A stretch of 64,000 nt of DNA from a virus: positions 1-64,000 of IMG/VR virus record IMGVR_UViG_3300040856_003274. One strand, 5' to 3'. Shown here in pieces: positions 9,861-53,530 of the stretch (position 1 is the stretch's first letter; the number at the start of each line of letters is the position of its first letter). A program made the position numbers and the translations under genes. Under the pieces are notes generated by a model. It was given only the letters and a program-made list of their open reading frames with translations, was not told the DNA's origin and ran no database searches.

Positions 9861-9871
9861 GGAGATCGCTT

Positions 9872-11315: not shown

Positions 11316-11365
11316 TCTTACAGAGTGAGAGTGGCTTGAGCCTCCTTTAGGGCTCTGCTAAGATT

Positions 11366-11400: not shown

Positions 11401-11420
11401 TCGTATTAGGAGACACTGCT

Positions 11421-13835: not shown

Positions 13836-13877
13836 TGCCGCTACGCCAGGTGGTTAAATTCTATAAGGATTGACGTA

Positions 13878-14318: not shown

Positions 14319-14331
14319 GAAAGGTAATCTA

Positions 14332-14809: not shown

Positions 14810-14902
14810 AAAAATGGCTTCCCTATCCCATTTTTTAGTGTAGATTGGTTGCAAGGGCGCTATTGGAGCACCCTACAACACTATCCACGCTAAGGGGATA
14901 AC

Positions 14903-15469: not shown

Positions 15470-15489
15470 TTGGTAGAGAGGAGCATAAG

Positions 15490-34982: not shown

Positions 34983-35023
34983 GAAAGCTGAAAAGCATAG
35001 CGCCGATGGTTGAGGCGAGAAGA

Positions 35024-36406
35024 TTAAATAATGAAGCCCTTTGAGATTAGGGTAATCTCACCTAACATTACAGAGTGGATGTCTTCGACAAACTTCGATA
35101 TTAACCGCTCGTCTTCTCCCTCAACCATGATCCGAGCTTTCTGTTCCGTACCAGAGTAACGGATAAGGACTCTCCCTCTGTCGGCTAATCTTTTCTCGAT
35201 GGATGCGATTATAGCGTTCGTCTTTAGGAGGCTCTCAAGGGGAGGCTTGGAAGACACCTTGAAGCTCTTTAGCACCTGAGGGTAACGCACCATCTCAGAC
35301 CCTAAAGCGTTTAGGGTTTTCTTCTCAGTAACCATAATGTTGAGGATAGCGAGGGCGGTGGCAAGACCGTCCCCTGTGGTCGAGAAATCTTTAAGGATGG
35401 TGTGTCCTGATTGCTCGCCTCCAAGATTAAGCCCTTCCTCTATCATCTTTGCCATAACGTGACGATCCCCTACCTGTACCCTCTCTACAGTCACGTTGTG
35501 CTTCCTTAAGGTAGTGTCGAGTCCTAGATTACTCATTACAGTTGCGACAACACGGTTACCTTTTAGCTGTCCGTTAGCATTCATCGTCCTGCCCAAGATT
35601 GCGAGCACTTGATCCCCGTCTAATACGGATTGCGTTTCATCAACAAGAATGACTCGATCTGCATCTCCGTCTAGAGCAATGCCGATATCCGCACCTTCTC
35701 GGCCTACTCTCTCGATTAGCTTCTCGGTGTTTGTAGCTCCACAGGAGTCGTTAATGTTAGACCCGTCAGGCGTAACGCCGATTGCAATTACTTCTGCGCC
35801 GAGGTCTTTTAACAGATTAGGGGCTATGCGGTAAGCCGCGCCGTGGGCGCAGTCCACGACTACTTTAAGACCCTGTAAAGAAAAGCTCTCAGGAAGGCTT
35901 TGTTTTATCTTCTTAGCGTAGAGAGAGATAGCATTGTCTATATGAGAGGTTCTACCGATATTCCTACCTGTGAGGCGAAGCTCCTCGCTACCTAGCTTGA
36001 GAGTATGGATGATGCTTTCAATCTTTCTCTCAGCGCCTTCTGTAAGTTTAAGTCCGTTTTGATCGAAGACTTTCACACCGTTCTCCTCAAAAGGGTTATG
36101 GGAAGCAGTGACCATAAGCCCTGCGTCTGCATAAAGACTTTGAGTGATGGTAGCTACCGCAGGAGTAGGGACGATCCCTGCAAAGAGAACATCCACTCCA
36201 GCCGAACAGAGCCCAGCAACTAGAGCGTGTTCTATGAGACATCCTGATAACCGTGTATCTCTTCCTAAAACAACCTGTGGTCGCCTCTCTTCGATGTGTT
36301 GATAGAGACTAAGCCCTATAGCGCGTCCTAATAAAAGTGCTGCCTCAGGGCTCATTACGCCAACATTAGCGAGCCCTCTAATACCATCTGTACCAAACAA
36401 CCGCAT
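35024..36406 (-). CDS. glmM: phosphoglucosamine mutase
   Basis: FGTDGIRG, GRDTRLSG, TASHNP, DGDADR, GEQSGH, RYSGTE. Confidence 0.95.
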   Translation of the reverse strand: MRLFGTDGIRGLANVGVMSPEAALLLGRAIGLSLYQHIEERRPQVVLGRDTRLSGCLIEHALVAGLCSAGVDVLFAGIVPTPAVATITQSLYADAGLMVTASHNPFEENGVKVFDQNGLKLTEGAERKIESIIHTLKLGSEELRLTGRNIGRTSHIDNAISLYAKKIKQSLPESFSLQGLKVVVDCAHGAAYRIAPNLLKDLGAEVIAIGVTPDGSNINDSCGATNTEKLIERVGREGADIGIALDGDADRVILVDETQSVLDGDQVLAILGRTMNANGQLKGNRVVATVMSNLGLDTTLRKHNVTVERVQVGDRHVMAKMIEEGLNLGGEQSGHTILKDFSTTGDGLATALAILNIMVTEKKTLNALGSEMVRYPQVLKSFKVSSKPPLESLLKTNAIIASIEKRLADRGRVLIRYSGTEQKARIMVEGEDERLISKFVEDIHSVMLGEITLISKGFII

Positions 36407-36410
36407 TGAA

Positions 36411-37478
36411 TCACCTTCTCTTAGAAGCTATTTTCTTAACACCTTTGATTAAGTTATTTTCTAGAAGAGTCGGGCTTATATACCTTTTCCAAAAGTATGG
36501 TGTGAACACTGTCTCGAAGTTAAAAGAGCGGTCATGGTGGCTAATTTGTATTTCCTTAAGGGGACGTTGAAGACCCCAAGGTAAAAAAAGAATTACGTAT
36601 TTGGTTGTATGCTGGGCGAGAGGATCTTCTAAAAGGATTTTTATCTTAAGAGTTTGTTTTAAAACGGGGGATACAATCTCATAAGTACGAGATCGGGTTG
36701 TACTTCTAGAGAGCGTAGCTTTCCACATGTTGGGTTTAGGGGGGTCGCCCCACATCACTTCAATAGGGCTCTCGTCAGAGGCGATTTTTGTGCTACCGCT
36801 CCTTGGCTTTATCCTTATTACGCTACTTATTTCTTTCCAACCCTCACGGCTTTTAACCTTTTCAAACCATGCTTCTGCGGCATGAGTTAAGGTGGCTCCT
36901 GCATTGAACTCAAGCAACTCTGAATAGTAGTAGACCTGTAACTCCCACAGGTAGCTCTCTCTATCCATTGTGTGTATCTGAACCTTTAAGTATTTAGTAC
37001 CGCCTACATTTTTTCGGAAGTCTTTCGCGGTTATCCTTATCGGGCGCTCTATTAGTGGGCTATCTACGGTAAGGCTGAGTTCGTATTCGTCGTAAGAGGC
37101 TTTCCATATATTAGGTTTGGGTGGGTTTCCCCATTGGAGCTCAATCTTAGAAGAAGCGACTTTGTTAGGTGTCTTAAGCTCGTTGTGCTTCACTAGCATT
37201 CTTTTAACGGTGCTCCAAAACGCATGGGAGAGCACCGCTTCTCCATCATCAAGGTCTTCTGTAGGCGCATAGAGACTTTCTTTCCAACTGCCCTGAGCGC
37301 CATAAACAGCAACGAGAGAGATACCCTCTGAGGTACTTTTTTCAAGGGTAATAAAAATAGTCTCATGCCGAAGCGCGGGAGATTGGATGGTATAGGCTTT
37401 CCATCCAGTTTTTAGCTCTCTTACGGTAGCTTTCCACATGTTGGGTTTAGGGGGGTCGCCCCACATCACTCTTAACAT
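36411..37478 (-). CDS. WGxPPKPNxWK-module repeat protein A (3 modules)
   Basis: three motif copies separated by KVAS/KIAS; ends KIASKRR; AGGAG RBS. Confidence 0.85.
   Translation of the reverse strand: MLRVMWGDPPKPNMWKATVRELKTGWKAYTIQSPALRHETIFITLEKSTSEGISLVAVYGAQGSWKESLYAPTEDLDDGEAVLSHAFWSTVKRMLVKHNELKTPNKVASSKIELQWGNPPKPNIWKASYDEYELSLTVDSPLIERPIRITAKDFRKNVGGTKYLKVQIHTMDRESYLWELQVYYYSELLEFNAGATLTHAAEAWFEKVKSREGWKEISSVIRIKPRSGSTKIASDESPIEVMWGDPPKPNMWKATLSRSTTRSRTYEIVSPVLKQTLKIKILLEDPLAQHTTKYVILFLPWGLQRPLKEIQISHHDRSFNFETVFTPYFWKRYISPTLLENNLIKGVKKIASKRR
36715..36759. repeat. 45-bp exact direct repeat (second copy at 37426-37470) encoding VMWGDPPKPNMWKAT
   Basis: GTAGCTTTCCACATGTTGGGTTTAGGGGGGTCGCCCCACATCACT present twice. 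Confidence 0.85.
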
Positions 37479-37535
37479 TAGTATTCTCCTTATGCTTAAG
37501 TAAAGTTAACACTTCTGAGTTATATGGAGATTATC

Positions 37536-38507
37536 ATGTCCCAACTAGCGTTACTAAAAGCCCTCCCAAACATCATCCTGGGGCTTTGGATGTCTTTCTT
37601 AAGTTATAAAGCCTACGTGTATTACGGCGACTTAACAGCCCAAAAAACTATCTTGAGGCAGACTCAAGGGCTCTTGAATGAGAAAGAGCGAGAGATGCAA
37701 AAGGAGCACCGAGAGATAGGAGTGTTAAAGTCTAAACTGGTCAAAGACCTCAAAAGCCTAGAAGAAGATGCTTCCCGTCTTAGGCAAATGTATGGAGAAA
37801 GCTCTGAGAAGCTAGACAAGTTTATTGCGAAGCACAACCTGAGGCTCAAATCCTATCAGCGAGCTAACTTCTCCCTGAGGCAGAGGATTGAGTCTGCTAA
37901 GTCTAAACCAAAGGTGACTGTGGTTACCAAAGCGGGGTCGTGTGAAGAAAACACCGAGGTGTATTATCGTTATGAGGAAGAGAATGGGCGCGTAATCTTA
38001 GAGACTCCCAACTGCCTTAAGAATGGTGAAGAGGTCTTGACTCTTAACCAGTCCTTTGTGGTGTATGGAGAGGTTTTCCAACAAGATGGCGGGGCGCTTG
38101 AGGTATCCAGGTTAGTCTTAAAAGAGGTAGACCCTGACAACCCTAAGATCATTCTCGCAAAACCAAAGTTAGTAACAGGTGATTTTAAGTACCATCCTTT
38201 TACGCCTAAACCTAAGCCTGCTAAGCCCTTCAACATAGTGGCTGGAGTCGGGTTTGATAAAGACGGGTTCGCTAACGTCTCTTTAGGTATCTCTCCGCTC
38301 AGGTATCGCCAAGGGTTCTTATCTCTGTCCTATCAAATGTTTGAGCAAGCTAAGGGGATTGATAGGCACGCGATCTCAGCGCGAGTCGGCTGGCGACCTA
38401 AACTCTTTGAGGGAGATTTAAACTTCGGAGTCTCTTTGGGCGTTGGCACACCTGTAACAAGGCTAATCCCTCAATATACTCTGTCTTTTGATTTCTTTGT
38501 TTGGTGA
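37536..38507 (+). CDS. membrane-anchored coiled-coil protein with beta-strand C-terminus (spanin-like candidate)
   Basis: N-terminal TM, long coiled coil, amphipathic strands ending YTLSFDFFVW. Confidence 0.55.
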   Translation: MSQLALLKALPNIILGLWMSFLSYKAYVYYGDLTAQKTILRQTQGLLNEKEREMQKEHREIGVLKSKLVKDLKSLEEDASRLRQMYGESSEKLDKFIAKHNLRLKSYQRANFSLRQRIESAKSKPKVTVVTKAGSCEENTEVYYRYEEENGRVILETPNCLKNGEEVLTLNQSFVVYGEVFQQDGGALEVSRLVLKEVDPDNPKIILAKPKLVTGDFKYHPFTPKPKPAKPFNIVAGVGFDKDGFANVSLGISPLRYRQGFLSLSYQMFEQAKGIDRHAISARVGWRPKLFEGDLNFGVSLGVGTPVTRLIPQYTLSFDFFVW

Positions 38508-38520
38508 GAGGCAAGTTGTT

Positions 38521-39612
38521 ATGGGTGATCTAAAAGCGCAGTGGGGTAATCCTCCTAAACCTAATATGTGGAAAGTGAGAGAGTACAACCACTCTTCAGA
38601 CAAAGACTACGTGGCTGTTGTCTCTCCTATCTTAAAGAACAACGGTGAGTTTTACGTAATGCGTAACGAAAAGCGAGAGTGGGAAATACGTTACCATGAC
38701 CGCTTCCACATATATATCTCCATTAAGCGTCTGAAAGAAACTCACAGCTTTTTAGAAGTGCGACATTACTTCTTAAGCTCTGTATGCTGGTCAAAAGATA
38801 TCGGGCCGTTCTTAAGAGACAACCGAAACTTCTTCGCAGACGGCTTTTCGACAAAAGTCGCGTCTTCTGTCCTTAAGGCAAAGAAGATTAAGCATCGAGC
38901 TATGTGGGGTGACCCTCCTAAGCCTAACATGTGGAAGGTCGATTTTAGGTGGTATGCTGGAGGTGGCGAGGAGTTTTCTTATTGCTCGGTAGAGTCCCCT
39001 GTCTTAAAAGAGGGGTCTTTTTTCCAGTTGATGTTCGACACCTCAAGTAAAAAATGGACTATTCAATACAGCGGGTCTACTACTTTCCACGTCCACACCT
39101 TTCATAATACAAATAAATTTTTAGAGGCGCGGGATATCTTTTTAAGTCGAAAGGGCTGGAAGATTATCAAGACCTTTGCGCTTATCGCGGGGACAGATTT
39201 CTTCCGCACTAAGGTAGCGTCGTCTTCTTCTAAACTCGAAGCGCATTGGGGTACTCCAGCCAAACCTAATATGTGGAAAGTTGAGGAGTACGAGGAGTTT
39301 GTAGAGGTCACTTCTCCTGTGTTAGGAGACGGTTCTCTTTTGTTAACCTCTCCTGCATATAATGGCACAATCAAATATCACATAGAGTATCACAATAAAA
39401 AACGACATCTTCGGAAACTAGTGATGGAGGTAGACAACTATCCGTATGAGAATGCTTTAAAATGGTTCTTAGGGAGTATGTTTTGGGATAGGAAGTTAAA
39501 AGAGTGGGCGAGTAAGCAACCTTTCCCAGTATTCACAAAAAATAAGATAGCTTCCTCTAACTTGCGGGTGATGTGGGGCAACCCCGTCAAATCTAATCTA
39601 TGGAAGGTCTGA
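38521..39612 (+). CDS. WGxPPKPNxWK-module repeat protein B (3 modules plus terminal stub)
   Basis: motifs at 38542, 38905, 39247, 39574; KVAS/KIAS linkers; GAGAGG RBS. Confidence 0.85.
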   Translation: MGDLKAQWGNPPKPNMWKVREYNHSSDKDYVAVVSPILKNNGEFYVMRNEKREWEIRYHDRFHIYISIKRLKETHSFLEVRHYFLSSVCWSKDIGPFLRDNRNFFADGFSTKVASSVLKAKKIKHRAMWGDPPKPNMWKVDFRWYAGGGEEFSYCSVESPVLKEGSFFQLMFDTSSKKWTIQYSGSTTFHVHTFHNTNKFLEARDIFLSRKGWKIIKTFALIAGTDFFRTKVASSSSKLEAHWGTPAKPNMWKVEEYEEFVEVTSPVLGDGSLLLTSPAYNGTIKYHIEYHNKKRHLRKLVMEVDNYPYENALKWFLGSMFWDRKLKEWASKQPFPVFTKNKIASSNLRVMWGNPVKSNLWKV

Positions 39613-39684
39613 GGACGAGCTTAGGATTTCTTTATTCCACTTATACCCGCCTTTAGGTAGGATCTACCTAACAAGGAGAAAAAA

Positions 39685-40170
39685 ATGAGAAGAACAGCTT
39701 CAGAAATACTATCTGACATTAAGGACCTTAAGATCAGAGTCGCTAACTTAAATTATTCCTCTATGGTTACGATTTCATCGGAAGCGCGGAAGCTCCTCGA
39801 CCATGCGCGTACTATACCTGATCTTGCTGCCTCGAATAAGAGTGATCTAGGGACTCTGATGCACATCGGGTTGCCCCCTATAATAACGAGGTTGCATAGA
39901 GCACTTAAGGCTAAGGCTAAGGGTGGTGAGTCCGTGACAGAAATGGATTTAGAGTTGCTTCAGTTCTGTGTGTATCTACACAACGAGCTGGCAAATGGCG
40001 GGGCGTGGACTCTTGAACCTGCACCTGTCAATCAGCAGTTGAACCCTAGAGCTTTTGATGAGGTTTCAGGGGCTCGGTCAGGTTGGGTAGTTGAGACTAT
40101 CGTTCCTAGCATCCCACAAGTAAGCGCACTTAGGGGGCTAGTCAAAGTGACAGCGCGTCGTCCTCAATAG
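39685..40170 (+). CDS. hypothetical protein with MRRTASEIL leader
   Basis: AGGAG RBS, upstream TATTCCACTTATA, leader shared with 17400-17777. Confidence 0.75.
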   Translation: MRRTASEILSDIKDLKIRVANLNYSSMVTISSEARKLLDHARTIPDLAASNKSDLGTLMHIGLPPIITRLHRALKAKAKGGESVTEMDLELLQFCVYLHNELANGGAWTLEPAPVNQQLNPRAFDEVSGARSGWVVETIVPSIPQVSALRGLVKVTARRPQ

Positions 40171-40214
40171 TTGTTCACCTTTCTATTCGTTCATTAAGAG
40201 CGACACTAGAAAAG

Positions 40215-40508
40215 CTAAAGACTCTTGAGTAGGTGAGGAGGGATCTCTTTCCCATAGATTTTCCTGAGTCTAAAAGATACGTCCTTGTGCGCGTCTTTAT
40301 ACTCAGTAAAGAATAAAGGGGCTCTTTGTTCCCATGCCTTGTAGCCGATTTCTTTGACGAGCTCAGCGATCTTGTAAGCATCTACTTGGTGTATGCAATC
40401 TTTAATCGCCTCAGAGCCTTTTACGGGCTCTAATGTTACAAACAGCATGAAGATTTGATTAGCCTGCTTGTATCTCTTAGCTACTCTGCGTGCTTGCTCT
40501 TTTCGCAT
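40215..40508 (-). CDS. hypothetical protein (RVAKRYKQAN leader)
   Basis: 97-aa ORF with GAGAGG RBS. Confidence 0.6.
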   Translation of the reverse strand: MRKEQARRVAKRYKQANQIFMLFVTLEPVKGSEAIKDCIHQVDAYKIAELVKEIGYKAWEQRAPLFFTEYKDAHKDVSFRLRKIYGKEIPPHLLKSL

Positions 40509-40629
40509 AGACTTCTAGCCTCTCAGTCATGGTGTTTATCAAAAGCTAATATCAGAGGTTTAGTGTTTGACAAGCGTAATCCCTTCCGATGTTATGAGCT
40601 TTATCAAGCCACGTCGGAAAGGAAAAAAA

Positions 40630-41214
40630 ATGGCGCTCACCTTTTATTACTCTACCGTTAATGCGGGTAAGACCGCGAAGCTCATCTTAGACGCGCACGC
40701 GCACAAGAGTCGAGATGTTAAGACTCTTGTCTTGCTACCTGAGATCGCGCTCTCAAGAGAAAACGGTAATACTCTCTCATCAAGAGCAGGGCTTTCTTGT
40801 GAGATTACATCTTTGCCTGACGGTGGTTGCCCTCACAGCCTTGTGAGCGATCTTAATGAGCTACCTGAAGTGGTCTTCATTGACGAGGCGCAGTTTCTCA
40901 CCCCAGCTCAGATTAGAGGTCTTTGTAATATTACAGACCTCCTTAACATCCCTGTATTTGCTTTTGGACTACGTACTAACTTTTACGGTGAGCCTTTTGA
41001 GGGGAGCATTTATCTCATGGCATGGGCAGATAGGATCGTAGAGATACCTACACCGTCAACGAGAGAAAAGCATGTTTTCGCGACAATGAACATTAGAGTG
41101 TGTCCTGAGACTAAAGAGCGCGTATCAGGAGAGAACGGGATTGAGGTAGGCTTTAACTTTGAGCCTGTAAGCAGAAGGTATTTTAATCTTAATGAGAGAT
41201 GGGAAGAAAAATGA
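40630..41214 (+). CDS. tdk: thymidine kinase
   Basis: YSTVNAGKT P-loop, SRAGL, DEAQF, GLRTNF.GEPFEGS. Confidence 0.9.
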   Translation: MALTFYYSTVNAGKTAKLILDAHAHKSRDVKTLVLLPEIALSRENGNTLSSRAGLSCEITSLPDGGCPHSLVSDLNELPEVVFIDEAQFLTPAQIRGLCNITDLLNIPVFAFGLRTNFYGEPFEGSIYLMAWADRIVEIPTPSTREKHVFATMNIRVCPETKERVSGENGIEVGFNFEPVSRRYFNLNERWEEK

Positions 41215-41699
41215 TTGCACTAATCGCCGCTGTCGGCGCAAAACTAGGTATCGGCTTTAATGGTCAGCTCCCTTGGGGGCATATTAAGAAAGACATGTCG
41301 CACTTTAAGCGTGTGACAAAAAACAGCACGCTCATTATGGGACGCGCTACCTACGAGTCGATAGGCAGACCCCTCCCTGATAGAGAGATGTTTATTGTGT
41401 CGAGCACATTAGAGCCTAATGACCATATTCGAGTTTTTAAGGATATACCCACAGCATTAGAGGCTTGTAAGACCGAAGACATATTCTTTGCTGGTGGTGT
41501 CCGTATTTACGAGGAGGGTGCTAAATACGCAGATAGGATATACCTTACTATGCTCTCTTCAGAAGCTGAGGCAGACACTTACTTCCCTAAGCAAATACTT
41601 ACTCCTGAAGAGTGGGTAGTCATAGATCATTCGCATGATTATGACTCCGACTCAGATGTGAGGCTCAGCTTCTTCACATTTGAGCGAGAGGTGGCTTAA
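41211..41699 (+). CDS. folA: dihydrofolate reductase
   Basis: IAAV...IG..GQLPW...DM.HFK..T....IMGRATYESI..PLP.R...GG..IY...DTYFP. Confidence 0.95.
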   Translation: MIALIAAVGAKLGIGFNGQLPWGHIKKDMSHFKRVTKNSTLIMGRATYESIGRPLPDREMFIVSSTLEPNDHIRVFKDIPTALEACKTEDIFFAGGVRIYEEGAKYADRIYLTMLSSEAEADTYFPKQILTPEEWVVIDHSHDYDSDSDVRLSFFTFEREVA

Positions 41700-41702
41700 G
41701 GT

Positions 41703-42497
41703 ATGTCAGAGCAAGGTTACATTAACTTAGCTAAGAAAGTGCTCTCAGAGGGCGAATACCGCGCTGATCGAACAGGTGTGGGTATTTATTCTCTCTTCGG
41801 TGAGCAAGTCAAGTATGATCTCACAGAAGGCTTCCCGTTGCTCACCTCAAAGAAAGTCTACTTTAAAGGTGTAGCATACGAGCTGATTTGGTTTTTGAGC
41901 GGAGATACTAATATTAAATTTCTGCAAGAAAACAAAGTGCGGATATGGGACGAGTGGGCTGACTCCGAAGGTAATTTAGGGCCTGTCTATGGCAAGCAGT
42001 GGAGAGATTGGAGCGGTGTAGATCAGATCGCTAATCTTATAGAAGAGCTTAAGTCTAATCCGACTTCGCGTAGGCATCTAGTGAGCGCATGGAATGTTAG
42101 TGAGTTAGCAGAAATGGCGCTCCCCCCTTGCCACATGACCTTTCAGTTTTATGTGCGCCGAGGAGAGTATTTAGACTGCCAGCTTTATCAGAGGTCTGCT
42201 GATCTTTTCTTAGGCGTACCTTTCAACATCGCCTCCTACGCGCTCTTAACTCATGTGATCGCTAAGCTAACAGGACTTAAAGCTGGCGTGTTTACGCATA
42301 CAATGGGTGACGTACATATCTACTCCAATCACCTAGATCAGATTAAGGAACAGATTAGAAGATTTGAGAACGAGCCTAGACCCCTCCCTCAGATAGAGCT
42401 TCAGCCGATTGATAACATAGACTCATTTTGCTACGGAGACATAAGAATAGCGGGGTATGATCCTCACCCTCCTATCAAAGGTACGGTGGCGGTCTAA
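41703..42497 (+). CDS. thyA: thymidylate synthase
   Basis: [54 protein letters not shown]. Confidence 0.97.
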
Positions 42498-42547
42498 ATT
42501 CTATATACCTTCGATAGTCACAGACTAGTAAAAGACTAGGAGGTACT

Positions 42548-43624
42548 ATGAGACACCTGACAGCTCGACAAAGAAAATCAAAACTTAGGCTTCACTTAGA
42601 CACTCACGTTAGTAGGCTTGTGCGGGAGTTTAGAAGTCATCTTGATATGTACATTATGAGCAACAAGGACGCTCTGATTAAGAGTATAGGGGATAACTTC
42701 GACTCTCGTATCTCTCCCATCATTGACTCGATCCCTAGCCATGAGACAGACAGTGATTTTTTTAGAGGCGGTGTTTATGTGTCTCTCTCTTACTTCAACT
42801 CAAGAGATCCTATCCAATCTTACTTTAAAAACGGTTACGGGGTTGAGGAGACTCTTGCTAATCTAATAGAGCAGACCACAGATCGAGGAGATTTTTCTTT
42901 AAGCGATGCTTACGACAAGTGGTTTTACTATTACAGCCCTCTCTTAGCGCGGGCATTAGGTAAGGTTAAGATACAAACTAACCCTTTCCTTGTAGATGCT
43001 TACAAAGGTAAGGCGCTTAACTTCTTCTCTCATAGCGCACTCTCTGCCTTTTCGATTTTAAGCCACCTGCTGAGATTTTTTAAAGCACCTGGACTTGTGG
43101 TAGAGGCGGCTCTTGTTGCGCTCTTCGCACCTAAGAAGAAAGCTGTAGAGAGACACCTTAATATTAAGACTGCTTCTGTAAAGGTAGCCCAGCGATACCT
43201 AATCGCTAAGGCTCTCGAAGATGACGAGAAGCGAGACATCTATAACAGGTGGCATAAGCTCATCAACATGACACAGAAAGAGCTAGAGGATTGGGGGGAC
43301 AACCCTGAGCGCCTAAAAGCCTCTCTCAACAGGCAGAGAGCCAAAGAGGAAGGGGGCATACAGAGCGGTTATGACTCTTTCCGAAGAATAGTGCGTCGTA
43401 AGTCGAAGCCCTTCAAAGATTGGTCGCCACAAGACTTCCAAAACGCTCAACAAGAGATAAACTTTAACACTCGTATGCTTGGGAACAACCCGGGTCAACC
43501 TGTGAACAAAGACATTATGAAATCTAAGTGGGAGATTAGCCTGCTTAACTGGGGGCATGACCCGTCTAAGAAAAGCTCACCCTCATATGGTAAATGGAAG
43601 GCATGGAAAGATGACCTTGAATGA
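42548..43624 (+). CDS. two-domain protein with C-terminal DUF3140-like domain after a KTAS/KVAQRY linker
   Basis: INMT..ELEDW...SG..S...W.ISLLNWGHDP. Confidence 0.65.
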   Translation: MRHLTARQRKSKLRLHLDTHVSRLVREFRSHLDMYIMSNKDALIKSIGDNFDSRISPIIDSIPSHETDSDFFRGGVYVSLSYFNSRDPIQSYFKNGYGVEETLANLIEQTTDRGDFSLSDAYDKWFYYYSPLLARALGKVKIQTNPFLVDAYKGKALNFFSHSALSAFSILSHLLRFFKAPGLVVEAALVALFAPKKKAVERHLNIKTASVKVAQRYLIAKALEDDEKRDIYNRWHKLINMTQKELEDWGDNPERLKASLNRQRAKEEGGIQSGYDSFRRIVRRKSKPFKDWSPQDFQNAQQEINFNTRMLGNNPGQPVNKDIMKSKWEISLLNWGHDPSKKSSPSYGKWKAWKDDLE

Positions 43625-43994
43625 GTATATCGAAAACTTTTACGAGCCCCGTGTAATCTTATCGCACAGCGAGACGGATTTTCCTGTGACTTATAACTTT
43701 CGAGACATCACGTTAGACCTCCTGAAAGATTACGATAAGATTGTCTTTTCGACAAAGCGTATGCGCACGCTGTCTGATGACGCTGTGTGGCAAGCGCAGG
43801 CTCTTCGTAAAGAGATTGAGGGTACACAAATAATAACTGACCGCTACGGACTTGCGCTTGTTTCTTCAAACCCGCAGAAGGTGGTTATGGGTTTCCTTGA
43901 CCTTATCTCCACAAGAGGGGAGTACGTAGATTACTTAAACAGCCTAAAAGCTCCGACCAAAGCTGTAAACGCCCTATTTTTTGATAAACCTTGA
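43611..43994 (+). CDS. hypothetical protein
   Basis: GGAAAG before the ATG at 43611. Confidence 0.6.
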   Translation: MTLNEYIENFYEPRVILSHSETDFPVTYNFRDITLDLLKDYDKIVFSTKRMRTLSDDAVWQAQALRKEIEGTQIITDRYGLALVSSNPQKVVMGFLDLISTRGEYVDYLNSLKAPTKAVNALFFDKP

Positions 43995-44020
43995 ACCCGC
44001 ATAGCTAGGAGGAAGTAGCT

Positions 44021-44671
44021 TTGATTACCTACAAAAACAAGAATAGACGGTTATTCTCCGCAGATGATAATGAGAATGTGATCCTAATCTCCGCACCTCA
44101 GCAGAGTGGGGGAGGTGAGCCTAAGGCAAGAGAGATTGTGACGGAGGGGACTCACATCTATTTCTTCCAAGACGTGACCACGGAGAGTGTACAAGATTTA
44201 GTGGTGACTCTTAGAAGGATGACCGCGAGCATCTTAGAGTTTACGACGGATTTAGAGCTCCCTGAACCCCCTCCTATCCATCTCCACATCAACACCAACG
44301 GCGGGGACGCTTTCGCTGGTTTTTCAGCATCTTTCTCTATCGCTTCTAACCCGATCCCTGTTTACACCTACGTAGACGGTCAAGTTGCTTCCGCAGGTAC
44401 GTTTATGTCTCTCGCGGGCGCGAAGCGGTTCATGCAACCTCAGTCCTTCATGCTTATCCATCAAGTCTCATCGGGTGTGTGGGGTACTTATGCTGACATT
44501 GTGGACGAGAAGGAGAGCCTTGACCGCATCATGGAGAAGGCTAGAGAGCTCTACAAGAAATACACTAAGATTAGCGATGAGAGGCTCGATGATCTCCTTA
44601 ACGGCAACCTTTGGCTTAACGCAGAAGAGTGCTTAGAGCTGGGCTTCGTTGATGAGGTACAAAAAAGTTAG
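44021..44671 (+). CDS. ClpP-like serine protease
   Basis: HINTNGG, VASAGT (catalytic Ser), MLIHQ (His), WL.AEECLELGFVD. Confidence 0.88.
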   Translation: MITYKNKNRRLFSADDNENVILISAPQQSGGGEPKAREIVTEGTHIYFFQDVTTESVQDLVVTLRRMTASILEFTTDLELPEPPPIHLHINTNGGDAFAGFSASFSIASNPIPVYTYVDGQVASAGTFMSLAGAKRFMQPQSFMLIHQVSSGVWGTYADIVDEKESLDRIMEKARELYKKYTKISDERLDDLLNGNLWLNAEECLELGFVDEVQKS

Positions 44672-44727
44672 TGTAGCTTTTGGGAGAGGTAGTGTATAGG
44701 GGACACTCTTAAGAAAGGAGTCCCAAT

Positions 44728-45321
44728 ATGCTACCGCCTATCGAGGCTATCAAAAACTTTGTCTTAATGACTCAACTCTTGTCTTCAAGCTGGGGTGTAC
44801 CTCCTCAGCAGATTGATGACGCACAATGTTACCTCTTTGAGCTAAGCCATGCTATCGCTCATTACTCTGAGGACAAAAACCAACAACTCATGTATTTGAC
44901 TATTGCGGCTCAGGAGTCAAAGTTTAGCTTTGACCACCCAAACGACGAGCCCTCAGTTAACCCGAAGTCAGGTGCTTGTGGCCCTTATCAAATCGTCCCG
45001 AAGTGGGCTGTACCTAAAGATTTACCTGCTGATTGCAACGAGCTTCACGACCCTTATGACGGCACTTGGAGACTCCGAGAGGCGCTCTCAGCCATAGCAA
45101 AGATGGTGAAGCCTAAGAATGTGATGTGCTATTATGCTACAGGTGACCTTGAGTGTACCCATGAGAAGACTCCTTACTCACGCGTACACTCAAGACTAAA
45201 GGAGAAAATACGCAGAGAACGTGCTAAGATAGATAAATACGGCAAGTACGCTTTAAAGATCGTAAGACTCACGCTTCAAAACAAGTGTTCGCGTGGGCAA
45301 AATTCAGAGCCACTCAGGTAA
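44728..45321 (+). CDS. SLT-type lytic transglycosylase-like protein
   Basis: IAAQESKF (catalytic Glu) and SGACGPYQI motif. Confidence 0.7.
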   Translation: MLPPIEAIKNFVLMTQLLSSSWGVPPQQIDDAQCYLFELSHAIAHYSEDKNQQLMYLTIAAQESKFSFDHPNDEPSVNPKSGACGPYQIVPKWAVPKDLPADCNELHDPYDGTWRLREALSAIAKMVKPKNVMCYYATGDLECTHEKTPYSRVHSRLKEKIRRERAKIDKYGKYALKIVRLTLQNKCSRGQNSEPLR

Positions 45322-46143
45322 TATCTGAGCCTCTAAATCTAAAGCGTAAAGCAAGTCAGCAGTGCGCTTCCCATAGCCTTTATTTAAGACTTTCTTAGGG
45401 TCGTTGACAAAATCATGTGACCCTAGCTTCGACGTGTACTTGTCAAAGCTCCAAATGTTCGTCTGAGTCTTAATGTCTAAAGGTACAAAGTTAAAGTCCT
45501 TACAGACGACTTTCCGCTCTCCTTTAGAGAAGCCTTCAAGTAGCGGATTGAGCTTCCTTGTCATCTTGATGTCCATGTTGCGGTTAATGTCATCAGGCCA
45601 CAGCTTCCAGTCTGCTTTATCAAGAAGAGCTCTACTCACACATCTACCTAGACCTAAAGTTACACCGTAGTTGGAGTGACCTTTAGGGTAATAGAAGTGG
45701 ATCATCTTCTTTGTAGAGGACTCAAAGAAGTAAATGTCTTGTATACCAATGTACGGGTATCCTTGAAATAGGAACCTAGCGTAGAGAGCGATCAGATCAA
45801 CAGGGAGCAAGTCATCGGTGTCTACAAACAGCACCGCGTCTATCTCTACTTGCCAATCTCTAATCTTTTCGAGCGCCTGATTACGTTTAGCAGACACGGG
45901 AGTATTAGGGCGCTCCATATAGTTGTAGTTGTGCCTCGATGCCAAGGAACGACTGTACTCACCTTCAGACCCAACCGCGAAGAGATAGAGCCCTATATTT
46001 TTCTTTAAGAGCTCTTTTTGAACATGGTTAAACCACTTAAATGTAAAGTCCGTCAGCACTTGCCTGCGCCACATCGTGGTAAGTATTGCGATGTTGGTTT
46101 TTTGAGGCGCAGGGTTCTGTTCGGCGTGAGTATATTCAATCAT
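45304..46143 (-). CDS. GT-A fold glycosyltransferase-like protein
   Basis: ILTTMWRR...KRNQAL...VDTDDLL...LGLGR. Confidence 0.65.
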   Translation of the reverse strand: MIEYTHAEQNPAPQKTNIAILTTMWRRQVLTDFTFKWFNHVQKELLKKNIGLYLFAVGSEGEYSRSLASRHNYNYMERPNTPVSAKRNQALEKIRDWQVEIDAVLFVDTDDLLPVDLIALYARFLFQGYPYIGIQDIYFFESSTKKMIHFYYPKGHSNYGVTLGLGRCVSRALLDKADWKLWPDDINRNMDIKMTRKLNPLLEGFSKGERKVVCKDFNFVPLDIKTQTNIWSFDKYTSKLGSHDFVNDPKKVLNKGYGKRTADLLYALDLEAQILPEWL

Positions 46144-46226
46144 GTCTTCGCCTTTATAAAAAATTGGGTGGTTTCTGAGATTTAAAGTGTAGATAGGTTG
46201 ACCCTATCACAATATGGAGAAAAGAA

Positions 46227-46610
46227 ATGGGTAACAACTTCCTCACCATCCAAAGACCTGTCGAGATCACAGAAGAGAGGTTTGAAGACCTTCTTTGCAA
46301 CGCTCTCGAAGGCGGAGTCTCTTACTGGGCTGACATCGACACGTCGATCCACCCTCCTCAAGAAGGCGATGAGAACATCGAGTTTCCTCACCTCGCGTTC
46401 ACTCATCCTAAGTACGTCATTCATGTCGTTGACCGTGAAGATGATGGGAACACCTTTAGGTTGAAGCTCGAAGACCTTAAGAAGGGTTTTGAGATTTGGG
46501 CTAAAGACTGTCCTTATCACTTTGAGAATTTTCTCAAAGAGGAAGATGACGCGATCACCGCAGATACTTTCTTCCAATGTTGTGTTTTTGGAGAGGTCAT
46601 TTACGGGTAG
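46227..46610 (+). CDS. conserved phage-type hypothetical protein
   Basis: ALEGGVSYWA...DAITAD..FQ...FGEVIYG; GGAG RBS. Confidence 0.75.
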   Translation: MGNNFLTIQRPVEITEERFEDLLCNALEGGVSYWADIDTSIHPPQEGDENIEFPHLAFTHPKYVIHVVDREDDGNTFRLKLEDLKKGFEIWAKDCPYHFENFLKEEDDAITADTFFQCCVFGEVIYG

Positions 46611-48168
46611 TCTTAGTCCTCTTAGTCCTCTTAGTGGACTTGGTACGCTTTGTCCTCTTAGTGGACTTGGTACGCTTTGTCCTCTTAGTGGACTTGGTAG
46701 CCTTAGTCCTCTTAGTGGACTTGGTGGACTTGGTAGTCTTAGTCCTCTTGGTGGACTTGGTAGTCTTAGTCCTCTTGGTCGCTTTTGGCGAGCCCCCTGC
46801 GCTCTGCAAGGCTTTTGTCAGAAAGACCTCAGGATCAAACCTAAGCTCAGTTTTCTGTTGAGTAAGTAAATCCTCTAGGTTGTCTTCTACAGCGCCCTCA
46901 GAGAGGAAACGCAAGAGCACCTGAGGGTTGATATAAGAAGAGTAAGTAGTCTTGACGCTCCTATGGCTCAAGTCTTGTTGTGATTTAGCATACGCTCTCT
47001 GTACCGCTTCCAAAACAGCAGTTGTGATCTCTTGCTTCATCTTCTTCTTAGCGAGCGCCTTAAAAGAGCCTACTTTGACATAGAGGTCAGCCTGCTCCTC
47101 TTTAAGGCTTTCCAAGATAGATCGAGTCGCCTTGAGCTTACGGAAGTCGGTCATCCTCAACCTACGGAGTTTCTTCTTTAAATAGGTGTTGACGATGGAC
47201 TGAGTGAGTACCTTTCCGTCATCAAAGACGAAGATAAACTTGCTACCTGCATCGCTACCCCTCTTTGTGCTCACTCTCCCTACCATGTCTTTTAAGACTT
47301 TGACGATCTGAGCGTCTCTCAGCTCAGCGACGTTGACTGTTGTCCTCTTCCCCACAAACTTGAGTTGGGCGACGTTAGCCCTCACAAACTTAATGTGTTT
47401 GGGCATAAGGGTGATCGCACCAAAAGTCTCCTCATACTCATCAGTGTCTGACTTGTAAACTTGGTTACCATGCTCACCTGGGCGGATACCAGTCTCCATA
47501 AGAATTGACACAACAAGCGCCTTAATCTTAAGAGAGCTGTCTGCGCTCCTAAGGTCTTTCAAGACGCTCTTTCTAATCTTAGCGTAGTTAGCTACCAGCT
47601 CCTTCTGCACCTCGATCTTCTCGCCTAAGTTTTCAAACTTCTCCCTAAAGCGATTGTAGAGCTTCGTGATCTTACCCGATCTGTCCGTCTCAACAACAAG
47701 ACTATCAGGAAGAAACTCAAAAAACTCTTCGCCTAGCTTCGCTTTGATATTGCGTGCGCTCTTCTCATTCTCCATGTCCCTATAGTTATTCTTCATGGAC
47801 GGAGCGATGCGCTGGAGCTCATCGTCTATGCTGAGCTCCCTAAAGTGGACGTTCCTGATCACATACGCGCACGCGCTTGTGCGACTAGACGCGCCCTTGT
47901 AGCCCTCACCGATATATCTCTTAGCGAAGTTGAGGAAATCTCTCTGCGTCACAAGATGCTTAGTGAAGATACGCTCTGCTTGACTAGGGGTCTTACCGAT
48001 TTTTTTCGCCGCTTGTAAGGTTTTCTTAGCGACAGGCTTGTACTTGTTAGAGAGCGTCTTCAGCGCCCTTAGCATAGCCTGATGGTGTCTCTCCCGCGCT
48101 TTCTCGTCGCGAGTATACATACGGCTATATTCTGTCTCTTCTCTAGCTAGTAAGTCCATCATTTGCAC
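46597..48168 (-). CDS. DNA topoisomerase IB with basic repetitive tail
   Basis: TGIRPG (R), FGAITL..KH, FVGK (K), DFRK..AT (R), LSH (H), SSYINP (Y) match the topo IB catalytic pentad. Confidence 0.85.
   Translation of the reverse strand: MQMMDLLAREETEYSRMYTRDEKARERHHQAMLRALKTLSNKYKPVAKKTLQAAKKIGKTPSQAERIFTKHLVTQRDFLNFAKRYIGEGYKGASSRTSACAYVIRNVHFRELSIDDELQRIAPSMKNNYRDMENEKSARNIKAKLGEEFFEFLPDSLVVETDRSGKITKLYNRFREKFENLGEKIEVQKELVANYAKIRKSVLKDLRSADSSLKIKALVVSILMETGIRPGEHGNQVYKSDTDEYEETFGAITLMPKHIKFVRANVAQLKFVGKRTTVNVAELRDAQIVKVLKDMVGRVSTKRGSDAGSKFIFVFDDGKVLTQSIVNTYLKKKLRRLRMTDFRKLKATRSILESLKEEQADLYVKVGSFKALAKKKMKQEITTAVLEAVQRAYAKSQQDLSHRSVKTTYSSYINPQVLLRFLSEGAVEDNLEDLLTQQKTELRFDPEVFLTKALQSAGGSPKATKRTKTTKSTKRTKTTKSTKSTKRTKATKSTKRTKRTKSTKRTKRTKSTKRTKRTKTTRK
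46609..46779. repeat. 9-bp-unit coding tandem repeat (TK[R/S/T/A] tripeptides)
   Basis: CTTAGTCCT/CTTAGTGGA/CTTGGTACG/CTTTGTCCT units. Confidence 0.9.
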
Positions 48169-48203
48169 TCTCCTTTTGATGAGAGCACATTAGAGAGAGA
48201 TTA

Positions 48204-49418
48204 TTAAAACAAGCTCCCTTGTATGCCCCCTCCTGCTCTCATCTCGCCCCTGACCTCACTAAAGCGTGGTAAGTAGAAGTCGAGGCGGGGCTTCCACCCC
48301 ATATTGTCCTTGATGTATTGAGGCTCAGTCACTTCTTGCTTAGAGAAAGTCCCCCAAAAACGACATATGCTCATATAACGAACACCTCTGTTAACGTTAA
48401 GAACATAGCCGTTGTCATTTGCCTGCTTCAACACCCACCCTAAGAAATAGTACGGTAGCGTGTCTTGGTAAGGTTTAAACTCTAAGTGGTCTGCATCAAA
48501 ACCGTATCTGTTCCTAATGCTTATTCGGTTACGGAAGAGGGGGGCGTTGAGATATTCACCTCCAAAAGTCAGGAAGAATACACCCTTTTTGCGGAGGCGC
48601 TTCCATATAAGCTGGAGGAGGTCATACGAGTTAGAGAAAGGGTCGAGGTCTATGAAGTCATAAGTGCGCTTTGTGCTCTTAATAAACTCTATGTTGTCTC
48701 CCAAATGCCAAACCGCGCTAGGGCATCTCTGCTTACCTTCGTTATAAAACTCTTCCTTGATCTCTACTACGTCGATGTGAGCTTTAGGGAACGCTTGCCT
48801 GACAATCTCAGCAGAGTGTCCTAATCCTCCATAAGCATCTAAAGCAGACCGTATCTTAATGGGAGTGTCTTTTAGCTCCAGCTCGTTTACAAACCACTTA
48901 TGGTCTGTGGAGACTTGATTTCTCTTCTTGCCATGCCCTCGGTTGATCATCCTCTCCGAGACAAAAGTCAGCTCACAGTTTAGAGCGATAGAGATTTTCC
49001 ACAGAGGTAAGCCTGCTTCGTAGAGCTCATCGGCGCAGTCTTTGTTCCAGTTTTCTTTACTGTCGATACGGGCGCACTTAGTGTTTTTGAAAGTGTCCCC
49101 TCTAACCTTACAGATTGCGCTGATCGCCATTTGTAGGTCTTTAGGGTTACGGTTGTATTTACACACAAGGTCGAAAGAAGACATGCCTGCCTTCCAATCC
49201 GCGTAAGCGCCCTCTCGCTCAGTATTCGTCCACCGTTTTCTTGTCGGCGCGACCTTGAGCAGGTGCTCTTTCCCTGAGTACGGAATTCTATACTTATCGA
49301 GTATCTGTAAGACCAAAACTCGGCTCTCCTCTAAGATTAGGGCGTTTGAGACATCGCTTAAAAGCATAATAAACCAAGACCTGTAGCCTGTATAGCCTTT
49401 TAGAGAGGATGCTACCAT
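48204..49418 (-). CDS. HTH-like N-terminus fused to a SAM-dependent methyltransferase
   Basis: LDAYGGLG (motif I), VVEI, DNIEF, YDFIDLDPF; start uncertain. Confidence 0.7.
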   Translation of the reverse strand: MVASSLKGYTGYRSWFIMLLSDVSNALILEESRVLVLQILDKYRIPYSGKEHLLKVAPTRKRWTNTEREGAYADWKAGMSSFDLVCKYNRNPKDLQMAISAICKVRGDTFKNTKCARIDSKENWNKDCADELYEAGLPLWKISIALNCELTFVSERMINRGHGKKRNQVSTDHKWFVNELELKDTPIKIRSALDAYGGLGHSAEIVRQAFPKAHIDVVEIKEEFYNEGKQRCPSAVWHLGDNIEFIKSTKRTYDFIDLDPFSNSYDLLQLIWKRLRKKGVFFLTFGGEYLNAPLFRNRISIRNRYGFDADHLEFKPYQDTLPYYFLGWVLKQANDNGYVLNVNRGVRYMSICRFWGTFSKQEVTEPQYIKDNMGWKPRLDFYLPRFSEVRGEMRAGGGIQGSLF

Positions 49419-49638
49419 GAAGAGAATAACTCTAATACTCCTAATCTCGTTAGGCGCTTGCGACGAGAGCGCCCAGCTTGAAGAACCTAAGACACTCTGC
49501 GAACAAGTGTCTGATAAACTCTACGAGTGTATCGGAGGCAGAGTACCTATTACCTACTGCTCACAAGAAACTGCGGATTATATACTCAACGCACCCTGTG
49601 AGGATGTGCTTGAGTTTATTAGAGGCTCTCAGCGGTAA
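49417..49638 (+). CDS. small Cys-rich lipoprotein
   Basis: MKR + hydrophobic + LGAC lipobox; GAGGA RBS. Confidence 0.7.
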   Translation: MKRITLILLISLGACDESAQLEEPKTLCEQVSDKLYECIGGRVPITYCSQETADYILNAPCEDVLEFIRGSQR

Positions 49639-52115: not shown

Positions 52116-52461
52116 TAGACTCCTCTTTAGGTTCAGTAGGTTCTTTAGGTTCAGTAGGTATAACACCTGACACTATTAAGACTTTCTTCTTTAACACCTT
52201 CACTAAAAAAGCATTAAGCGCCCCCGCAGAAGCCCCTAACCACAAGTCAAGTACGTCATAGCTCAATGACCAACCCACAAAACCCCCCACAAACACAGCG
52301 GCTAATCTAATCACTGCGTCAGCCTTCTCATTACATGTCCTGAAGATAAAAGGCTTCACTGCCTGAGTCACCGCAAAACTCAACACCGAGGCTATACACA
52401 CTAAGTATACATGCCCCATGTGCGGCTCAACTGGCGCTGCCGATATGCCTGCTAATAACAT
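52105..52461 (-). CDS. small multi-TM membrane protein (holin-like candidate)
   Basis: three hydrophobic helices, charged C-terminus with TEPKEP repeat. Confidence 0.5.
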   Translation of the reverse strand: MLLAGISAAPVEPHMGHVYLVCIASVLSFAVTQAVKPFIFRTCNEKADAVIRLAAVFVGGFVGWSLSYDVLDLWLGASAGALNAFLVKVLKKKVLIVSGVIPTEPKEPTEPKEESNDG

Positions 52462-52566
52462 CTCATTCCCCTTTCTTAACATTAAGGTCGTCTTTAACCC
52501 TTATATAGATATAACACTATTAGAGACACCTACCCCCAACACCACGCTAAGAAAAGACCCTCCCAC

Positions 52567-53268
52567 ATGATTGACAACCTCAAAATATCTATACACGGGT
52601 CATGCGTCACTAGAGATGCCTTCAACTACCCTCCCTTCGGTAAAGAACATATCCATTACTATCAGGCTCGGTCTTCTCTCTGTACAAAACATCTCCCCCC
52701 CGCTCAACCTCCCCAAGCCCTCTTAGACGCGCTCTCTAATAAGTTTAAAACAAAAATGCTCACCTTTGACCTCTCAAGAGCACCTATACCAAACCAATAC
52801 CCTGTCATCTTCGACCTCATAGATGAACGCTTTGAGGTATGTGAGTATCAAGGTGTCTCATACACCCAGTCTGAGAACCCACAAGGGATCACACCCTCCA
52901 TCATACACCCAAAACACTCTCAAGAGAGATTAGACCTCTTCTCTCAAGGTGTCTCTCACATATATCACCGACTCAAAGAAACTCCCGTTCTACTCCATAA
53001 AGCCCATTACGCTACACAATACCGTTGCTCTGTAGACTCTACCCTTAAACCCCTGCCTACAGATAAAGAACACATCAAAGCTATGAACGCATACCTCGAC
53101 ACCCTACACGACGCTTTCTTACAAGCTGTCCCACACGCTATCCCCATAGAGGTAGACCAGTCCCTTAGAGTCGCTAACCCAAACCACATATGGGGACTCG
53201 CACCCTATCACTACATAGATGACTATTACGCGTCCTTACAAAGGCTCATACTCGACGCTCTAAAATAA
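52567..53268 (+). CDS. DUF6270-like protein (polysaccharide-associated SGNH-like)
   Basis: IHGSCVTRD, Y.ARSS, DLIDERF, H.WG.APYHY..DYY. Confidence 0.7.
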   Translation: MIDNLKISIHGSCVTRDAFNYPPFGKEHIHYYQARSSLCTKHLPPAQPPQALLDALSNKFKTKMLTFDLSRAPIPNQYPVIFDLIDERFEVCEYQGVSYTQSENPQGITPSIIHPKHSQERLDLFSQGVSHIYHRLKETPVLLHKAHYATQYRCSVDSTLKPLPTDKEHIKAMNAYLDTLHDAFLQAVPHAIPIEVDQSLRVANPNHIWGLAPYHYIDDYYASLQRLILDALK

Positions 53269-53329
53269 CCCTCCGCCAGCCCCCCCCCTGCTCACTTCTC
53301 GCTTCTGACGAAATGTTTACAGCTAGGGC

Positions 53330-53530
53330 GCAAATTGTTTTCAAATTAATTTGACCCTCCGAGCAAATTAATTTGGGATCAGAGCAAATTGTTTTCAAAT
53401 TAATTTGACCGAGAACCCGCTTTAGTAAGCTATTCTTGCCCAAATTAATTTGGAGTAAGAGCAAATTGTTTTCAAATTAATTTGGGTTTTGGGGCAAATT
53501 AATTTGGGCTTAAGGCAAATTGTTTTCAAA
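53330..53530. repeat. AT-rich iteron array, candidate replication origin
   Basis: 6x palindrome CAAATTAATTTG and 4x GCAAATTGTTTTCAAA in a non-coding gap; G/C skew flips here. Confidence 0.75.

Follow-up and report, generated by a model that had tools for sequence, protein, structure and literature searches.

This analysis concerns a family of small protein modules encoded in the first 64 kb (positions 1 to 64,000, hereafter the window) of the IMG/VR virus record IMGVR_UViG_3300040856_003274. The record is 168,266 bp long and its completeness was judged to be ~40%, which makes the source virus a huge phage; sequencing runs containing the stretch come from estuary, marine and freshwater metagenomes. 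Genes A, B and C of the window encode modules that are each headed by the motif W-G-x-P-P-K-P-N-x-W-K, and an initial annotation made from the sequence had proposed that this motif is a DNA recombination hinge. Genes A and B diverge around a single intervening gene, X, an arrangement that the annotation had correctly recognized and that makes their motif copies inverted repeats with 76–89% complementarity. Genes B and C are convergent. Genes, motifs and stubs (motif copies without a module body) are listed below, with lengths in amino acids (aa) or nucleotides (nt).

36411-37478, minus strand: gene A, 355 aa, modules A1-A2-A3
36715-36759, minus strand: 45-bp exact repeat, head of module A3
37104-37133, minus strand: motif of module A2
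37426-37470, minus strand: 45-bp exact repeat, head of module A1
37524-38507, plus strand: gene X, 327 aa, flanked by inverted motif copies
38521-39612, plus strand: gene B, 363 aa, modules B1-B2-B3 and a stub (the open reading frame (ORF) called by the program starts at a TTG at 38488)
38542-38571, 38905-38934 and 39247-39276, plus strand: gene B motifs
39574-39609, plus strand: gene B stub, WGNPVKSNLWKV
49629-52115, minus strand: gene C, 828 aa, modules C1-C7 and a stub
52038, 51681, 51330, 50988, 50649, 50286 and 49932, minus strand: gene C motifs, given as the low coordinate of each 30-nt core
49632-49670, minus strand: gene C stub, WGTSAKPNIW-YYR-stop

The module family

In translation, the motif occurs 15 times in the window and 38 times in the whole 168-kb record, which holds 36 full domains and two stubs spread over eight genes (A–H). 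The module behind each motif copy spans 97–156 residues, typically 105–128, and beyond the motif only three features are constant: a turn with the sequence S-P-x-L, the start of a helix (F-L-S-x-x-G-W) and, at the end of the module, the linker K-[VI]-A-S-(S). An alignment of 13 modules has nine invariant columns, which lie in the motif or the linker, and a mean column identity of 34%; mean identity is 23% in an alignment of 72 modules. The K-[VI]-A-S junction is nearly invariant in these alignments. No two bodies in the record are near-identical, the best pair sharing 44% of residues, and no RVT_1 match that would indicate a diversity-generating retroelement was found in the 168-kb record.

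We modeled module C3 together with the next linker and motif by AlphaFold2, using the 72-row alignment. The model (predicted local distance difference test score (pLDDT) of 84.8, predicted template-modeling score of 0.75) is an alpha/beta domain with five strands and two helices. The leading motif lies within the fold (pLDDT 78), and the trailing linker and next motif are predicted to be disordered (pLDDT 52–60). Because the leading copy is folded and the trailing copy is not, the model assigns the motif to the body that follows, as the N-terminal segment of that domain; a motif without a body would accordingly be an orphan segment.

Searches for relatives gave little. Pfam and PHROGs returned nothing significant for genes A, B, C and X and their neighbors, blastn and tblastn against 50,697 GenBank phage records found no match, and Foldseek on the PDB (E ≤ 0.001) found no match to the module. 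The best VIA-align score (Z = 5.5) is in the noise range, and all matches of the module in the ESM Atlas have template-modeling scores below 0.5. Weak rows for the small immunity and inhibitor proteins TriTu, Acr and UGI recurred in the fold searches; they, too, lie in the noise range and were not used. A family profile searched against 1.84 billion proteins recovered 41 representatives only, and a scan of IMG/VR with the motif pattern recovered a single distant contig. As judged by these searches, the family is an orphan that matches no known family or fold.

The distant contig belongs to another huge phage (L011, IMGVR_UViG_3300046170_000446). Within its positions 5500-9391, it encodes a 462-aa protein that combines two family modules with an unrelated C-terminal part, and K-[VL]-A-S sites occur at least eight times in the product of the gene that follows, which is 817 aa long. 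The abundance of such sites in the latter protein suggests that the linker signature is distributed more widely than the domain family.

Module turnover and an inversion among related phages

The relatives that we compared share 84–89% nucleotide identity with the window phage; L-numbers denote their contigs, P-numbers denote representatives of the family proteins and X4 is a sister strain. Each module in a relative was assigned to its best match among the 36 full modules of the record. On these assignments, relatives differ by whole modules in every locus. The C locus, which reads C1-C7-stub in the window, consists of C1-C7, two more modules and a C-terminal domain of ~125 aa in P0042 (85% identical) and of C1-C3-C5-C6-C7 and the C-terminal domain in P0043. 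The F locus, F1-F6 in our record, is F1-F3-F4-F6 in P0013 and F2-F3-F4-F6 in P0050; E5 is joined to F1-F5-F6 by gene fusion in P0052, E3 is duplicated in P0049, G5 is missing from P0017 and the H locus has one additional module in P0053. The A locus holds one to three modules overall: relatives carry either a 148-aa gene (a body-less head and A2) or a 244-aa gene (a B-like module and A2), and A2 is the sole gene A module with an orthologue in more distant relatives. Alignment of orthologous loci, the comparison that the initial annotation had called for, thus finds a module order that is not fixed, and it supports the view that related phages gain, lose, duplicate and swap modules.

All breakpoints that could be mapped on DNA lie in the linker–motif zone; those of P0042 and P0045 were mapped on the protein level and via pieces of X4 only. 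The deletion junctions C1|C3 and C3|C5, present in L023 and L012, fall within zones of 43–81 nt over which the alignments to the two parental sequences overlap, and these zones correspond to linker plus motif. Around gene X, homology between the window and L016 or L019 spans the gene and ends at the A1 motif on one side (at 37475 in L016 and at 37430, inside the motif, in L019) and at the B1 motif on the other (38571 or 38576).

The stubs of genes B and C belong to the same record of change. Both genes stop right after a degenerate motif with no body, as the initial annotation had reported: gene B ends ...KIASSNLRVM-WGNPVKSNLWKV-stop, and gene C ends ...KVASSEGLKAM-WGTSAKPNIWYYR-stop. Proteins P0042 and P0043 end ...M-M-T-F-D-Y-Y-R-stop, and, exactly between window positions 49640 and 49647, X4 carries 931 extra nt and L023 carries 390 nt. 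Because relatives carry two more modules and a C-terminal domain that ends ...DYYR-stop, the C stub is a deletion scar: the head of an eighth module now runs into the final three codons of a C-terminal domain that is otherwise gone. The B stub is most likely a truncated module, too, since its odd motif WGNPVKSNLWKV shares an unusual P-V-K with WGNPVKTNAWKV, the head of a full third module in gene B of the sister strain (P0045). The suggestion that the stubs are scars is thereby borne out for gene C and is probable for gene B.

Among the 41 family representatives, the only stub-ending genes are B and C of the window and P0022 (260 aa, probably a broken gene call); nearly all others end a few residues past K-x-A-S. 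This distribution indicates that the stubs are accidents rather than a designed feature or functional sites. A third kind of stub, N-terminal by its sequence, is the head of the 148-aa gene (L016, 8512-8958, minus strand), in which a degenerate motif runs straight onto a linker (M-S-K-S-Y-P-P-R-P-N-Q-W-K-T-K-V-A-S) and then into an A2-type module.

The largest rearrangement affects genes B and C together and involves the following features.

39247-51359: segment between the B3 and C3 motifs whose orientation is reversed in a related lineage, with TK, DHFR, ThyA, a ClpP-like protease, topoisomerase IB and others
52567-53268, plus strand: DUF6270 gene, an outer flank marker of the inversion that lies beside C1 in both arrangements

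The inverted arrangement is carried by a contig of 18,937 nt (ERZ27284453:k141_173875), which is made up of L025 and L012 and whose exact overlap was checked. From left to right, it reads DUF6270(-) - [C1|B3'-B3](+) - 97aa(-) - TK - DHFR - ThyA - ..., followed by ClpP - ... - topoIB(-) - 370aa(-) - [B1-B2|C3-C5-C6](-) - X(-). Contig positions 7064-16558 are collinear with window positions 40214-49639, and the flanks are reversed, the left corresponding to window 57233-51741 and the right to 39281-37963. Because the inner part is collinear and both flanks are reversed, the stretch from the B3 motif to the C3 motif, 11.4 kb in this contig, is inverted between the two phages, with the outcome that the C-terminal arrays of genes B and C have traded places. 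The sequences at the two junctions are inverted copies of each other that lie 11.4 kb apart and run from the A-S-S linker codons through the motif; they are identical at 48 of 54 nt, with at most 18 nt of perfect identity. In three-way alignments, parentage switches inside the motif at B2|C3 and at the K-V-A-S|S codons at C1|B3'.

Both chimeric genes recur in independent assemblies (L013, L015, L026–L028 and further cluster members), including three full-length genes of the P0002 type and P0061 on six contigs, among them one from the Joint Genome Institute. P0043 (C1|C3-C5-C6-C7...) and P0045 (B1-B2|B3'-...) are exact un-inverted parent types from which P0002 and P0015/P0061 would arise by one reciprocal exchange; like all parents of the inversion considered here, they are present-day proxies. 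The un-inverted order is found in the window phage, X4, L023, L014/L016 (one 45-kb contig), L019–L021 and L022. Given this distribution and the parental gene types P0043 and P0045, the inverted order is most likely derived, by a single event in one sublineage.

Inverted motif copies also flank gene X, and the initial annotation had suggested that the segment between them, 37478-38521, could invert. Gene X is conserved beside gene B, and its orientation is unchanged in each of the seven relatives whose sequence extends over it, so the idea that inverted motif copies drive inversion holds between genes B and C and fails between genes A and B. We also compared four runs, as 31-mer contigs, with window positions 35000-53500. 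Strand-changing joints in these contigs (27–33 nt on one side) were rejected as inversions, the hits being cross-hits of the paralogues G4 and D1 and the loose ends matching the flanks of these modules; joints that skip ahead or go back (27–43 nt on one side) were rejected as circles, as they are cross-mappings of other motif copies. Neither excised circles nor variant module orders within one sample were seen in these assembled contigs, which are not a fair test of either.

Several neighboring genes complete the picture of these loci. Within the inverted segment, a 523-aa protein (46597-48168, minus strand) matches the topoisomerase IB catalytic core of the eukaryotic type (PF01028, E = 1e-13) and is conserved in all relatives. 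Inspected by eye, the translation of gene X is hydrophobic near the N terminus, continues with a long stretch of charged residues that is probably a coiled coil, and is rich in glycine and aromatic residues toward the C terminus, where its end, F-D-F-F-V-W, resembles the terminus of an outer-membrane beta-barrel. Between gene A and a 1,894-aa sheath-like gene lies a phosphoglucosamine-mutase-like gene (35024-36406, minus strand), annotated with four PGM_PMM domains in relatives; it is present in the window strain and its nearest relatives (L024 and X4) only and absent from L016, L019 and L021. Behind the gene B stub lies the following ORF, which begins M-R-R-T-A-S-E-I-L.

39685-40170, plus strand: strain-specific ORF of 161 aa, absent from L013, L016 and L019; the sister strain has a 119-aa ORF there

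Selection on the motif and identity confined to it

Selection at the protein level maintains the motif. Across the 38 motif cores, positions that encode the same residue use identical codons at a frequency of 0.47 between genes and 0.54 within genes, where codon usage predicts 0.44, and codons at the degenerate motif positions are used in approximately their genome proportions. In orthologous modules of three strains, synonymous codon differences number 31 of 115 in the motif and 183 of 950 in the bodies (Fisher P = 0.06). Synonymous sites are thus not less diverged in the motif, which argues that it is conserved as protein and not as a DNA site. The hinge proposed for the motif accordingly survives in an evolutionary sense and not as a dedicated DNA site, and the companion suggestion that the stubs serve as docking sites finds no support, as the motif is not maintained at the DNA level. 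Of the two observations that the initial annotation had named as speaking against a hinge, silent divergence as great in the motif as elsewhere is what we found, and a module order fixed across relatives is not.

Superimposed on this pattern are a few paralogous pairs whose DNA identity is confined to the motif. In gene A, whose product opens with a motif (MLRVM-WGDPPKPNMWKA) and closes with ...KKIASKRR-stop, positions 36715-36759 and 37426-37470 are identical at 45 of 45 nt, and the identity ends at once on either side. The initial description of an exact duplicate between barely alignable module bodies is therefore accurate to the base: A1 and A3 are mutual nearest paralogues, yet their bodies have only 28% identical residues. 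Only three pairs of identical 30-nt cores exist among the 38 motif copies, A1/A3, E2/E3 and H3/H4, each inside one gene. When codons were redrawn in simulation with the peptides held fixed, 0.11–0.28 such pairs were expected (P ≤ 0.007; within-gene P < 0.0005). In these three pairs and in B2/C4, 9–10 of 10–12 informative motif codons are identical, and in A1/A3 the count for the motif and its surroundings is 10 of 11, against the 0.44 predicted for motif positions. The corresponding matches in the bodies, 10/25 for A1/A3, 10/27 for E2/E3, 18/34 for H3/H4 and 10/28 for B2/C4, are close to the chance rate.

The history of the A1/A3 pair can be followed with L024, an independent contig with 89% nucleotide identity over gene A that contains the whole gene in the order A1-A2-A3. 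The A1 and A3 motif copies of L024 are not identical, with 4 differences in 45 nt, and the window A1 has the A3 state at all three sites at which the L024 A1 differs. The simplest reading of these states is a short conversion patch, from A3 onto A1, in the window lineage after its split from L024. A target-site duplication of an inserted A1-A2 cassette was rejected as the source of the repeat, the three-module gene being older than the L024 split and the L024 copies differing at four sites. In gene C (window 49640-51060), the linkers before C3, C4 and the stub are near-identical in the ~30 nt of DNA that precede the motif (V-A-S-S-x-G-L-K-[AV]-M), with 28 of 30 nt matching between C4 and the stub; this likeness suggests further within-gene homogenization that extends beyond the motif.

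Origin of the rearrangements and known parallels

We propose, with a probability of roughly three in four, that the protein motif heads domains and that the DNA islands it shares between modules serve as recombination points for domain shuffling and for the B–C inversion. In this multigene family of a huge estuarine or marine phage, a flexible K-[VI]-A-S-S linker joins one to nine domains, each of ~110–125 residues, per gene. Because the motif is selected as protein, each domain boundary carries 30–60 bp of shared DNA, 70–100% alike between otherwise unalignable neighbors. General, homology-tolerant recombination, of the kind known for phage annealing recombinases, would act at these islands. 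Exchange between direct motif copies would add, delete or duplicate whole domains and fuse genes, and, as genes B and C are convergent and their motif copies thus inverted, exchange between them would flip the intervening 11–12 kb and swap the C-terminal arrays. Strand exchange that begins in the motif and aborts, unable to spread into the diverged bodies, would leave a motif-only conversion patch such as the 45 bp of A1/A3. Selection for intact domains would add to the breakpoint pattern, and illegitimate deletions would also occur.

Several points weigh against this proposal. In-frame, whole-domain selection alone would concentrate surviving breakpoints at domain boundaries, so guidance by homology is inferred and not proven. 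Two mapped events depart from motif-to-motif exchange: the C-stub deletion has only one end in a motif and the other at the end of the C-terminal domain, and the deletion in the P0043 tail runs from a linker into the interior of a body. The initial claim that modules are gained, lost or swapped by crossovers in the motif therefore agrees with the whole-module changes and with the breakpoints mapped on DNA to the linker–motif zone, and does not extend to these two events. The two inversion junctions map ~30–40 nt apart, as judged against present-day parent proxies. Runs of perfect identity between most motif pairs measure 8–20 nt, which is short for classical homologous recombination, and the A1/A3 identity may reflect zero versus four mutations by chance since the L024 split (by our own estimate, roughly P = 0.05). 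Finally, no serine or tyrosine recombinase gene and no RecA, RecT, Rad52 or Erf-type gene was found in the 168-kb record, which represents ~40% of the genome; neither PF00239 nor PF00589 occurs in the window or elsewhere in this record, with positive controls.

Some of these points would follow naturally if selection were merely a filter, with illegitimate joins arising anywhere, motif DNA having no guiding role and only in-frame, whole-domain products surviving. The two events with one end outside a motif, the short runs of perfect identity and the freedom of synonymous sites from DNA-level constraint all fit such a process. It does not explain why the inversion junctions are alike at 48 of 54 nt, including synonymous positions of a linker that is otherwise variable, or why one of them lies inside the motif and not just anywhere in the tolerant linker, and the motif-limited identity of A1/A3, E2/E3, H3/H4 and B2/C4 needs pairing of motif DNA. 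We consider a filter acting alone unlikely. Doubtful, too, is the broader possibility that the lineage keeps its dispersed arrays recombining in real time and retains the invariant peptide partly for its shuffleability, by second-order selection. Populations would then be polymorphic for inversions and would undergo unequal exchange and patch conversion, which together would generate a combinatorial repertoire of small proteins, and a phage enzyme, for example the topoisomerase IB encoded in the invertible segment, might drive the process.

A programmed, reversible, site-specific inversion of the B–C or A–B segment by a dedicated recombinase, as in the Mu G, P1 C and shufflon systems, appears very improbable. 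It would account for inverted sites that lie inside two genes and swap their C-terminal parts while each gene keeps its own start, and the B–C segment does encode a topoisomerase IB; poxvirus topoisomerase IB-type enzymes can promote site-specific recombination. Against it stand the lack of a serine or tyrosine recombinase in the 168-kb record and the freedom of the motif DNA to vary at synonymous sites, unlike a recombinase site. The inverted arrangement is, moreover, limited to a single sublineage, in which the genes have diverged and shed modules since the event, segment 37478-38521 is un-inverted in all relatives that cover it, and no vaccinia-type CCCTT site was noticed in the junction sequences, for which no dedicated search was run. 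Least credible of all is that the 45-bp repeat and the chimeric genes are products of metagenome misassembly at short repeats. Contigs built from 31-mers do break at motif copies, but unitigs of run X1, probably the sample from which the record derives, end and start exactly 30 nt into each 45-bp copy, as they must at a true repeat of at least 31 nt. L024, in which four sites distinguish the copies, spans all of gene A on a single contig and has its modules in the window order. Judging from its name (k141_), the inversion contig was assembled with k = 141 across junctions with 18 nt or less of perfect identity, and both chimeric genes occur in several assemblies from different studies.

Most likely, the domains serve as an assortment of small proteins that may be set free by cutting of the K-V-A-S linker and whose composition would be under diversifying selection. 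Being paralogous and small and joined by an invariant, predicted-disordered junction, they resemble the internal and ejection proteins that T4 and giant phages process with proteases, a likeness that bears on function and not on recombination. The pattern [KR][VIL]AS occurs 50 times in long ORFs where eight are expected, almost all in the module family and in the ORF at 7209-9071 (plus strand). That ORF encodes a highly basic, low-complexity protein of 620 aa with four [KR][VIL]AS sites, the only non-family protein rich in the signature, and contains one degenerate stretch that resembles linker and motif (R-V-A-S-D-L-E-A-E-D-L-E-A-D-W-K-S-P-V-K-P-T-F). As for proteases, a ClpP-like gene is present within the window (44021-44671), and a protein of 184 aa that passes the curated cut-off for Peptidase_C39_2 (E = 8e-10) is encoded directly upstream of gene G, at 159717-160271 of the record (L010:1218-1772, plus strand).

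If our proposal is correct, the family offers a clean natural example of a peptide motif that is kept for protein reasons and becomes a built-in recombination handle. A single phage lineage would then combine accordion-like domain changes across eight genes with the fusion and fission of genes, with conversion patches and with an inversion of 11–12 kb that re-pairs the halves of two genes and flips nucleotide-metabolism and protease genes. The family occupies a considerable part of a huge-phage genome, and its rapid turnover from strain to strain is what would be expected at a phage–host interface. The mapped junctions provide concrete targets for measuring recombination at diverged homologies of 30–60 bp in uncultured phages, and they carry a caution, as short-read assemblies of such phages break or may mis-join at the motifs.

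In the invertible systems Mu G/Gin and P1 C/Cin and in the R64 shufflon, a dedicated recombinase acts on fixed sites of 26–34 bp, and the segments flip within a population. They resemble the B–C inversion in having inverted repeats within genes and in exchanging C-terminal parts behind a constant N-terminal part. They differ from it in that no recombinase was found in the 168 kb examined here, the site drifts synonymously and the two states appear to be fixed in different lineages.

For the enzymology of the events seen here, the most plausible analogy is with phage single-strand-annealing recombinases, which carry out relaxed homologous recombination and produce mosaicism at short, diverged homologies (De Paepe 2014, PMC3945230). 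In both cases, exchange would occur at short, imperfect islands of homology amid unrelated sequence. Unlike those systems, the available 40% of this genome contains no Rad52, RecT or Erf gene, and the islands derive from an intragenic peptide motif and not from intergenic boundary sequence. A cellular counterpart is the 'domain movement' reported for Helicobacter pylori Type I restriction specificity subunits by way of flanking repeats (Furuta 2011, PMC3077401); there, too, domains change position within a gene, but the proteins are different, the genome is cellular and two domain positions stand in place of the long arrays seen here.

By analogy, the closest described parallel is the exchange at motifs of T-even tail-fiber adhesins. 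As summarized by Trojet 2011 (PMC3157838), recombination occurs between the conserved His boxes of gp37 and the glycine-rich motifs of gp38 (Tetart 1996, 1998), and duplication of a small domain is also known in these adhesins. Both systems have short conserved peptide motifs between hypervariable segments and natural chimeras with exchange at or near the motifs. The module family described here bears no sequence or fold relation to gp37 or gp38; its unit is a whole globular domain of ~115 aa, present in 36 copies in eight dispersed genes instead of a single adhesin, and its motif appears also to have mediated an 11–12-kb inversion of core genes. We rate the shuffling process as one of a known kind, newly seen on an orphan protein family.

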